Shown in pieces: positions 23,610-24,658 of a DNA stretch of 64,000 nt (position 1 is its first letter; each line of letters starts with the position of its first letter). The translations under genes and the position numbers were made by a program. The stretch lies in the IMG/VR virus record IMGVR_UViG_3300042554_001750; one strand, given 5' to 3'. Source of the stretch: a virus. Taxonomy: Duplodnaviria; Caudoviricetes. Under the pieces are notes generated by a model. The model worked only from the letters and a program-made list of their open reading frames with translations. It was not told where the DNA came from and ran no database searches.

Positions 23610-23846
23610 CTAGAAGAATGGCAATTGAGTTTTCTTAGTTGTTTCTAAGTTATCATCAATAATTTTACTTAGGGCTTCTCTTTCTTGGGCTGACATATTC
23701 AATACATCAACATAAGATACCCCACCCCGCATATACCATGAAAATCTTAAAGCCGTTTCTTTTATAAGATTGGTTTCTTTTTCCATGCCATCAAGTAGCT
23801 TCTTGACCTCTTCGGGTTTTAGGTTAAGAAGCTTTAGGCGAAAAAA
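23610..23846 (-). CDS. gp51: gp51-like hub assembly segment; open from the slippery site (-1 frame of gp26), or 58 aa if started at ATG 23786
   Basis: FFRLKLLNLKPEEVKKLLDGMEKETNLIKETALRFSWYMRGGVSYVDVLNMSAQEREALSKIIDDNLETTKKTQLPFF*; the S.....NM...ERE pattern resembles the short gp51-like ORFs that follow gp26. Below the ORF track's apparent 60-aa cutoff. Confidence 0.7.
   Translation of the reverse strand, partial: FFRLKLLNLKPEEVKKLLDGMEKETNLIKETALRFSWYMRGGVSYVDVLNMSAQEREALSKIIDDNLETTKKTQLPFF
23797..23846 (-). other. Predicted -1 programmed ribosomal frameshift signal
   Basis: Heptamer T_TTT_TTC (23846-40) in the gp26 frame, spacer GCCTAA, stem-loop AGCTTCTT-A-ACCT/11-nt loop/AGGT-C-AAGAAGCT (23833-23797); -1-frame TGA at 23849-47. 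Confidence 0.75.
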
Positions 23847-24658
23847 TCAGAAACGTTCAATACAAATGGTTGCTCATAATCATGTGAGCAAGAAATACAC
23901 TTTAATTTTAATGGTTTGGTTTCAGTAGATGCTCTCAATTCAATACTTGTATTTTTGATTCTTTCGTATGTATTTCTATCGGAATTTTTCAAGAAATCCA
24001 TAATGTGTTCTTTGTTATCTACCTTTAAAGTAGGTGTTTGTACATGTTCAATACTTTCGCAAATTACTGATAATGTAATGTTGTTAATTGCACTTAGTAA
24101 CCTACTACTTTCTTTTAATTTTTTATCGTCATCCTCAATTACACTAGCTTGAATCATTGCTCTTTGTAATTCGGTTTGTGCAATATTAGCATCATTGATT
24201 TGCTTATAGCTCAATGGTTTGAATTTAACTTTTAATTCACCCAAATCTAAAGGTGTATTATAATCACCGGGTGTGTAAGTTTGTAATATTCCACTAAGAT
24301 TAACTCCGTAGCTACTTGAATCGTCACACTTTGGGCAAGTGCTTTCTAATTCTAAAGTACCGTCACCGCTAGCCGCTCTGATAGCAACCAATATAGGATC
24401 AATGTCTATCGCAGGAATAACCCATGGGTTTTTGATAGAAGGAACACAGCTTTTAATAATGTCCGTCACTGCTACGCCGTTGTACAATGCATCTGGTGTT
24501 TTGCTAGTTATTTCGTCAATCGCCGTCATTGGATAAATCGGAACTTCTCCGTTCTCGGGCATATCAATTGAGTCTGCAGGATAAAAGTTCCCACCGCTAG
24601 GTAGTTTTAAGTATAATGCTGGTCTGCGAAAATACTGTCTTAACGGATTATCTGTCAT
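23834..24658 (-). CDS. gp26: Baseplate hub assembly chaperone, gp26-like (274 aa)
   Basis: LKLPSGG.FY, MTAIDEI, IDIDPILVAIRAAS, CPKC, CISC, terminal SDFFA. Confidence 0.8.
   Translation of the reverse strand: MTDNPLRQYFRRPALYLKLPSGGNFYPADSIDMPENGEVPIYPMTAIDEITSKTPDALYNGVAVTDIIKSCVPSIKNPWVIPAIDIDPILVAIRAASGDGTLELESTCPKCDDSSSYGVNLSGILQTYTPGDYNTPLDLGELKVKFKPLSYKQINDANIAQTELQRAMIQASVIEDDDKKLKESSRLLSAINNITLSVICESIEHVQTPTLKVDNKEHIMDFLKNSDRNTYERIKNTSIELRASTETKPLKLKCISCSHDYEQPFVLNVSDFFA

Follow-up and report, generated by a model that had tools for sequence, protein, structure and literature searches.

A putative programmed -1 ribosomal frameshift in the gp26/gp51-family baseplate-hub gene of T4-superfamily phages

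Introduction

Conserved -1 frameshifts in tail assembly chaperone genes were reportedly described by Xu, Hendrix and Duda in 2004, and such frameshifts occur in lambda (G/GT), P2 (E/E') and Mu. The rule of a conserved tail-gene frameshift is not known to have been described outside tails of the lambda, P2 and Mu types. The present study concerns a gp26-like gene and the -1 frame that follows it in the IMG/VR virus record IMGVR_UViG_3300042554_001750 (Duplodnaviria; Caudoviricetes), a stretch of 64,000 nucleotides (nt) that was analysed at its full length and is called the window hereafter; its source is a T4-superfamily phage from lake-water metagenomes, and the DNA turned up in no RNA run. 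In T4 itself, the products of genes 26 and 51 are listed as assembly chaperones of the baseplate hub, a structure that includes the tape measure gp29; gp51 is an essential protein whose function is unknown and which the particle lacks (PMC3004832).

The comparison of this locus with its relatives makes it very probable that a baseplate-hub assembly gene of the gp26/gp51 family produces a short and a long form by programmed -1 ribosomal frameshifting. Most ribosomes would stay in frame 0 and terminate one codon past a slippery heptamer, releasing a short form of 274 amino acids (aa) that would correspond to T4 gp26. A fraction of the ribosomes would slip back by one base on U_UUU_UUC, probably aided by a hairpin 6 nt downstream, and read 76 more codons, yielding a long form of 349 aa whose helical C-terminal extension would make it the counterpart of T4 gp51.

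The gp26-like gene and its -1 extension

The features of the locus are as follows.

23834..24658, minus strand: short-form frame-0 open reading frame (ORF), 274 aa and a TAA stop, with the C-terminal end ...NVSDFFA; PF12322, T4_baseplate (gp26/gp51 family)
23840..23846, minus strand: slippery heptamer T_TTT_TTC (U_UUU_UUC in the RNA) in X_XXY_YYZ register, read from the sequence
23834..23836, minus strand: frame-0 stop TAA, one codon past the heptamer, which closes the short form
23610..23846, minus strand: -1 frame extension of 78 sense codons (FFRLKLL...WYMRGG...NLETTKKTQLPFF) and a TAG stop, the C-terminal tail of the long forms
23610..24658, minus strand: complete recoded gene, with a predicted long form of 349 aa
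23610..23786, minus strand: 58-aa ORF from the first ATG of the -1 frame, as a gene caller would report it

The short form matched PF12322 over residues 46-274 (E 3.7e-16; 59.9 bits against a cut-off of 24.5; profile positions 23-219 of 219) as well as the baseplate hub family phrog_150 (E 1.2e-15; profile positions 5-226 of 282). It also harbored two zinc-ribbon-like cysteine pairs, CPKC and CISC; the cysteine pairs of T4 are CTC...CPEC in gp26 and CPKC...CC in gp51, and the second pair is replaced in some members of the window's clade. The initial annotation of this DNA had proposed a heptamer in register within the terminal GAT TTT TTC GCC TAA, a TGA closing the -1 frame directly before it, and a first -1 frame ATG at 23786, and all three were borne out, with the heptamer at 23846..23840, the TGA at 23849..23847 and the ATG as codon 21 of the extension. 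From 23846 the -1 frame stays open to 23613, ahead of a TAG at 23612..23610; a recount of this interval gave 78 sense codons instead of the 79 first given. The sizes of the two predicted products, 274 aa and 349 aa, were reproduced, the fusion consisting of residues 1-273 from frame 0 and 76 residues from frame -1 if the slip takes place after the second Phe. The 58-aa ORF at 23610..23786 is probably not an independent gene. Judged from the sequences, the arrangement in the window is far beyond chance, and it recurs in every one-gene relative examined.

Conservation of the slip site and the extension

A total of 60 related loci in IMG/VR, with 31-85% protein identity, represented the window's clade, and the analysable ones yielded 46 non-redundant genes. 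Together with 85 IMG/VR loci of the cyanophage or Aeh1 type and ten cultured phages, these constitute the one-gene relatives examined. The heptamer T_TTT_TTC was invariant in the window's clade (46/46 genes). The codon preceding it was AAT, GAT, AGT or CAT and never ended in C, and the second Phe codon was always TTC, which accounts for 22% of the Phe codons elsewhere in the same genes; given each gene's own codon usage, the occurrence of xxT TTT TTC in all 46 has a log10 P of about -44 when the genes are treated as independent. In every analysable locus of the clade the frame-0 stop lay 1-6 codons past the heptamer, and only the -1 frame remained open, for 69-74 codons, the +1 frame being closed within 3-26 codons.

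The same heptamer was found in the phages PA5oct and Atu_ph07 and a 121Q-like phage, as well as in the cyanophages S-RIM8 and S-WAM1 and the Aeromonas phage Aeh1. Among the IMG/VR loci, T_TTT_TTC was present in 78/78 of the cyanophage type and 4/4 of the Aeh1 type, with T_TTT_TTT in three further loci, and one or the other of these two heptamers was detected in a KVP40-like vibriophage, Pelagibacter phage HTVC008M, Sinorhizobium phage phiN3 and Cronobacter phage S13. The heptamer, the frame relation and the point at which conservation sets in were retained in one-gene relatives down to about 25% protein identity. Of the relatives sampled, only the T4 group and one uncultured group lacked the site, and both of these have separate paralogous genes for the two forms. 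A blastn search of the locus against cultured phages gave no match.

The extension itself is well conserved in the window's clade, with a mean column identity of 58% and nearly invariant FFR, WYMRGG, NLETTKK and terminal P-F-F motifs, and it is better conserved than the end of the core domain. Alignments of the extension by tblastn usually began at residue 1, that is, at the FF encoded by the heptamer. In all these relatives the conserved extension lies in the -1 frame, begins at the heptamer and has no conserved start codon. The frameshift site that the initial annotation had placed at the end of the gp26-like gene is found with its heptamer, its frame and its start of conservation all kept; the survey of gp26 homologues that it had proposed recovered the T run and the -1 frame extension in every one-gene relative examined, and the gp51-like ORF did not wander between frames.

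These data bear on the possibility that no recoding takes place and that the extension is an independent small protein, expressed from its own start or by termination-reinitiation, with the heptamer being merely two Phe codons. Databases do annotate the extension in this manner, as a 'gp51' of 45-70 aa, and codon 21 is an ATG both in the window and in 17-19 of the 46 relatives. However, the first ATG, GTG or TTG of the extension lies elsewhere in the other genes, 13/46 genes have no start codon within the first 25 codons past the heptamer, and the column of the window's Met is Y, L or F in relatives. Moreover, protein conservation in the -1 frame sets in at FFR and takes in some 20 residues ahead of the window's ATG. 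Because these upstream residues are conserved and the start codons are variable, a free-standing small gene fails to explain the pattern. In favour of an independent small protein, T4 gp26 likewise has FF close to its C-terminus and no slip site there. Against it, the synonymous positions of the heptamer do not vary, contrary to what codon usage predicts, and the -1 frame, which always includes the heptamer, is open for at most 58 nt ahead of the frame-0 stop. In addition, lineages that lack the slip site always have the domain in one chain with a PF12322 core. Overlaps of the TAATG type occur in the 121Q-like phage Ecwhy_1 (Escherichia; L063:3830-4046) and the KVP40-like Vibrio phage R10Z (L161:905-1080), where a -1 frame ATG overlaps the stop and the extension is annotated as a separate ORF from it. 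Taken as a whole, an independent small protein is a very unlikely explanation of the locus.

Short 'gp51' annotations in relatives

It was previously reported that gp51 of cyanophages and marine vibriophages has about 20% of the length of T4 gp51, resembling its C-terminus and lacking the first ~200 residues, and that gp51 is 'missing only in Aeh1' (Sullivan et al. 2010, PMC3037559). The gp26 genes of S-RIM8 (...SFFG*), S-WAM1 (...SFFA*) and Aeh1 (...DFFD*) all end on T_TTT_TTC, after which the -1 frame continues for about 60 codons. In S-RIM8, a 45-aa 'baseplate hub assembly catalyst' is annotated inside the -1 frame that opens at the gp26 heptamer, and in Aeh1 and S-WAM1 the extension is present and unannotated, which explains the reported absence of gp51 from Aeh1. 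By tblastn, 519 cultured-phage records contained an extension of the cyanophage type and 52 one of the Aeh1 type, usually under the names 'baseplate hub | baseplate hub assembly catalyst' or 'hypothetical protein', and slippage was mentioned in none of the matches listed from these records. Likewise, PA5oct, Atu_ph07 and 121Q-like jumbo phages have the window-type arrangement, with the extension unannotated or given as a small hypothetical ORF.

The short 'gp51' of cyanophages and vibriophages is the same element as the extension in the window, lying in the -1 frame directly past gp26 and behind the heptamer, although the cyanophage type is shorter (~60-66 aa) and has diverged from the window type (hhalign E 7e-5, probability 63%, between the cyanophage extension and the window fusion profile). 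The suspicion that short 'gp51' ORFs in relatives are mis-annotated frameshift extensions is thereby supported by the layout in S-RIM8, which is the same under the annotations of the 519 records.

Putative stimulatory elements

The following feature is a candidate stimulator of the frameshift.

23797..23833, minus strand: stem-loop of 12 pairs including one A-C mismatch, with a 13-nt loop and a 6-nt spacer from the heptamer

The arms of the stem are AGCTTCTTAACC (23833..23822), which pairs with GGTCAAGAAGCT (23808..23797). For the 70 nt downstream of the heptamer, RNAfold gave -17.3 kcal/mol, with z = -3.3 against shuffled sequences, so that the 12-bp stem-loop with one mismatch and a 6-nt spacer drawn in the initial annotation is upheld by both pairing and folding. 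Most clades have a hairpin 5-7 nt past the heptamer with differing sequences (e.g., GCUUCU/AGAAGC and GGAUCU/AGAUCC), and in the clade nearest to the window 70.8% of cells were paired, compared with 32-46% when the 3' arm was slid. Furthermore, all cyanophage-type loci (L074-L153) carry a Shine-Dalgarno (SD)-like GAGG, GGAGG or GAAGG 11-15 nt upstream of the heptamer. An SD-like element upstream of the slip site is a feature of dnaX-type ribosomal frameshifting. The cyanophage element could be a stimulator at a dnaX-like distance or a coding coincidence, since it overlaps conserved Leu-Glu-Gly codons.

These elements help to weigh transcriptional slippage, in which RNA polymerase would add one U within the six-T run and normal translation of the altered message would give the same fusion. 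The product and the comparative signature would be those expected of ribosomal slippage, the run is homopolymeric, reaching seven T in HTVC008M, phiN3 and L158-160, and some clades have no obvious downstream hairpin. Efficient polymerase slippage, however, usually needs runs of about 8-9 or more, and T6 falls short of this. The exact X_XXY_YYZ register is kept in every gene, which matters to tRNA re-pairing and not to a polymerase, the hairpins stand at the canonical spacing of 5-7 nt in most clades, and the SD-like GAGG/GGAGG is found at the distance given above in all cyanophage loci; each of these argues for the ribosome. Transcriptional slippage is regarded as highly improbable, and we infer from the comparative data that the slippage is ribosomal.

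Relationship to T4 gp26 and gp51

T4 gp26 (residues 1-206 of 208) and gp51 (residues 1-201 of 249) each cover PF12322 end to end, and about 48 C-terminal residues of gp51 lie beyond the match. The match to phrog_150 ends at profile position 226 for the window's short form, 235 for T4 gp26, 280 for gp51 and 270 for the natural long form P0117. The family phrog_634, 'baseplate hub assembly catalyst', was matched by the cyanophage extension (E 2e-30), the Aeh1 extension (E 2e-14) and the tail of T4 gp51 (E 1e-23). When T4 gp26, gp51 and gp25 were searched directly with the 46-sequence fusion profile (hmmsearch), no significant match resulted, so that profile-profile comparison and PHROGs were needed. 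With hhalign, the window fusion profile aligned with the gp51 family collinearly to the last residues (probability 79%, E 1.5e-5), and the cyanophage extension aligned with the T4 gp51 family at 91% (E 1e-6). On these profile matches, T4 gp26 is the counterpart of the short form and T4 gp51 that of the long form. The gp51-like character first ascribed to the extension thus finds support through phrog_634, which joins the cyanophage and Aeh1 extensions with the gp51 tail, with a weaker link for the window's own extension, and the alignment of the fusion with T4 gp51, proposed at the same time, came out collinear.

T4 gp26 ends at an FF motif (...EFFELL), like the short form of the window, and T4 gp51 consists of a core and a tail, like the long form, with a tail of about 48 aa against 76 aa in the window. 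In contrast to the single window gene with its heptamer, T4 has two paralogous genes and no slip site (GAG TTC TTT GAG). The initial annotation had treated T4 gp26 and gp51 as separate genes; separate they are, but they are paralogs that match the short and the long product and not merely separate. In T4, as in the window, the gene is divergent from the operon with the tape-measure gene, which is gene 29 in T4. The next gene after 26 in T4 is gene 25, and after the gp26-like gene of the window comes the -1 extension. An identification of the extension with gp25 was considered, as gene 25 of T4 comes next and is in the -1 frame relative to gene 26, and was rejected: gp25 belongs to PF04965, has its own ATG and is unrelated.

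Some side observations concern the same proteins. The annotation of T4 gives gene 26 a further product, 26' (95 aa; L064:3803-4090), which lies internally and in frame, so that two proteins come from this gene by internal initiation. A protein database lists Pfam PF28602 beside PF12322 on the gp51 homologs P0001-P0092, presumably for the C-terminal tail. NCBIfam has no model for either the core or the extension.

Single-ORF long forms and tandem paralogs

A profile built from 40 extensions was searched against 1.84 billion representative proteins (E <= 0.001) and gave 574 matches. Among the best 150 of these, most were ORF calls of 40-100 aa with arbitrary starts, many of them including 'FFR', and 20 were single-ORF proteins of 319-351 aa with the extension at their C-terminus. 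The junction of these long forms reads xxFR, with a single Phe and no slip site. The window fusion aligned with the long forms in one BLASTP alignment across the junction, the best being with P0117 (E 9e-58; residues 11-349 against 5-342). An AlphaFold2 model of a natural long form was highly confident, with a predicted local distance difference test (pLDDT) of 95.7 and a predicted template modelling score (pTM) of 0.91, and its extension formed four confident helices at residues 262-337.

In 5/5 long forms looked up, the gene directly upstream was a second PF12322 gene of 276-319 aa without the extension, and four of these five short paralogs end just past an FF-type motif (DFFQKK*, NFLSST*, SFFND* and DFFAK*), the fifth (L070) ending in ...ISEFINQSAKQQ*. 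Because a short and a long PF12322 gene adjoin each other, the two products predicted for the window are two genes in the phages with tandem paralogs. These are the uncultured jumbo phages L065 and L067-L070, whose long paralog shares the WYMRG...ETTKK extension with the window; they have two genes, no frameshift and a single-Phe junction, as opposed to one gene with a heptamer in the window. The short paralog at L068:1660-1710 ends TCT TTT TTC AAT GAC TAA, in which the heptamer is kept and the -1 frame is closed after three codons, and this heptamer looks like a vestige of the frameshifting state.

A last explanation, that a sequencing error in the T run or a recent frameshift mutation has split one long gene, might appeal to the error-prone nature of homopolymer runs and to these single-ORF forms, but window positions 23700-23950 are identical and free of indels in contigs of four lake/freshwater metagenome runs, whose agreement as independent assemblies excludes an assembly error in the T run, the same split occurs in more than 130 loci and ten cultured phage genomes, and the natural single-ORF forms differ in their non-slippery junction and accompanying short paralog, so that the comparative data effectively refute this explanation and leave it a negligible probability.

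Comparison with lambda G/GT and possible function

The gp26-like gene resembles lambda G/GT in that a -1 slip on an X_XXY_YYZ heptamer, close to where the upstream frame ends, would let one gene give both a short product and one with a C-terminal extension, and in that the gene adjoins a tape-measure gene. In HTVC008M and phiN3 the gene order is tube, gp26, extension, a small ORF and tape measure, which matches the V-G-T-H order of lambda. It differs from G/GT in that the upstream product of the family is about twice the size of gpG and has the zinc-ribbon-like Cys motif pair, and in that the extension has 60-78 aa and is modelled as four ordered helices (pTM 0.91 for the long form). The long-form model was compared with the PDB (Foldseek and VIA-align), AlphaFold DB Swiss-Prot and clusters, BFVD and the ESM Atlas, and the matches were family members or noise. 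The homolog in PA5oct lacks the note of virion mass spectrometry that its neighbours carry.

The gene is a PF12322 member that is G/GT-like in its expression logic and is not filed in the G/GT family. By analogy, the gene may plausibly have a chaperone role like that of G/GT: its two forms would act as non-virion chaperones of the tape measure and the hub, and the extension would provide the long form with an extra contact.

The comparative data establish the site, the frame relation, the selection on the extension from the heptamer on, and the existence of fused single ORFs elsewhere. Several observations nevertheless weigh against programmed frameshifting in a G/GT counterpart. Regarding the signal, U_UUU_UUC is not known to be among the best-studied efficient bacterial slip sites. 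The downstream hairpin, which the initial annotation had suggested looking for in homologues, was found in most clades but is absent or weak in some, with none standing out in the clade L046-L052 and in many cyanophages; in the clade nearest to the window the base of the stem is conserved with few compensatory changes, and covariation is modest. In the 121Q-like and KVP40-like clades with TAATG, coupled re-initiation may also express the extension, or both mechanisms may operate. Regarding homology, the window-type extension profile alone aligned with T4 gp51 at the right place but not significantly (E 0.006, probability 6-25%), and the window-type extension alone had no PHROG match; the case for equating the window's long form with gp51 is therefore built from collinearity, a series of linked profile matches and the natural long forms. 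Regarding the likeness to G/GT, the window gene is divergent from the tape-measure gene and not upstream of it, and does not have the placement between the tail tube and tape-measure genes that is seen in HTVC008M and phiN3. It matched no Pfam tail-assembly-chaperone family at E <= 0.1, and the best chaperone-fold signal, to YqbN (3klu), had a Z of 5.5 over 82 residues, which is within noise.

Genomic context of the window

Further genes in the window relate to the locus and to the T4-superfamily source.

24716..28540, plus strand: tape-measure-like ORF of 1274 aa, largely helical, with a C-terminal lysozyme/SLT-like region; divergent neighbour of the gp26-like gene, with the portal gene next to it
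28556..30343: portal gene
18802..19704: gp55-like late sigma factor

A 57-nt gap separates the gp26-like gene from the divergent tape-measure-like ORF, in agreement with the divergent placement first noted, and the synteny around the gp26-like gene is the same in PA5oct, a 121Q-like phage and L070, which shares the portal, the tape-measure-like gene and gp46/47 with the window. The lysozyme/SLT-like region of the 1274-aa protein matched Pfam SLT weakly (E 0.01) and phrog_30077 (E 2e-14), and it is preceded by a linker rich in Ser, Thr, Pro and Gly near residues 950-1000. In addition, the window encodes a gp6-like wedge protein, a gp25-like protein, a gp5/27-like hub protein, gp46/47-like nuclease subunits, and a prohead protease along with the portal. 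An ORF of at least 2412 aa (1-7236, minus strand) runs off the window edge and adjoins the gp6-like and gp5/27-like baseplate genes.

The T4 late-promoter motif TATAAATA was located at 24698-24705 on the minus strand, 40 nt 5' of the gp26-like ATG and within the divergent gap; as the window shows no enrichment of this motif (4 copies against 9.7 expected), no inference is drawn from it. Between a PDDEXK/RusA-like resolvase gene and the stop of the extension, about 480 nt (23126-23609) have no long ORF and contain terminator-like hairpins on the minus strand at 23536..23523 and 23150..23135. No Rfam family was detected in window positions 22900-24000 (E <= 1).

Evolution and significance

In a quick maximum-likelihood tree of the core domain, T4 gp26 was sister to the gp51 family, with a support of 88 in the Shimodaira-Hasegawa-like approximate likelihood ratio test (SH-aLRT), and apart from the frameshifting genes of Aeh1 and the cyanophages, and the short tandem paralogs nested among the frameshifting genes of the window's clan. 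This tree, which is deep and lightly supported, points to two or more replacements of recoding by duplication. The state with one frameshifting gene is widely spread, which suggests that it is the older one, and it is probably ancestral in the T4 superfamily, two paralogous genes having taken its place in lineages such as the T-evens. The broader picture, in which an ancestral frameshift extends across the superfamily, gp26/gp26-51 is its counterpart of G/GT, and T4 gp51 is the long product hard-wired by gene duplication in one of at least two independent events, is somewhat better than an even prospect. It covers cyanophages, pelagiphages, rhizobiophages, KVP40-like and Aeh1-like phages, jumbo phages of the Rak2/121Q/PA5oct type and many uncultured lineages. 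The class of mechanism is already known, and on this evidence its occurrence in the gp26/gp51 family appears to be new and of wide reach; no description of a gp26 frameshift was found in the full-text literature, whose coverage leaves out most subscription journals, so that a prior description is possible.

If this broader picture is true, hundreds of 'gp51' mini-ORFs in GenBank would be mis-annotated, and a large-scale correction would concern the 45-70-aa 'baseplate hub assembly catalyst' ORFs in 519 records. T4-type myoviruses would join the conserved tail-gene frameshift rule, and T4 genes 26 and 51, two morphogenesis genes that are poorly understood, would acquire a testable role as a short and long chaperone pair acting on the hub and the tape measure. 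The family would also provide a natural example of two routes for setting the ratio of two products, recoding and gene duplication, that have been swapped more than once.

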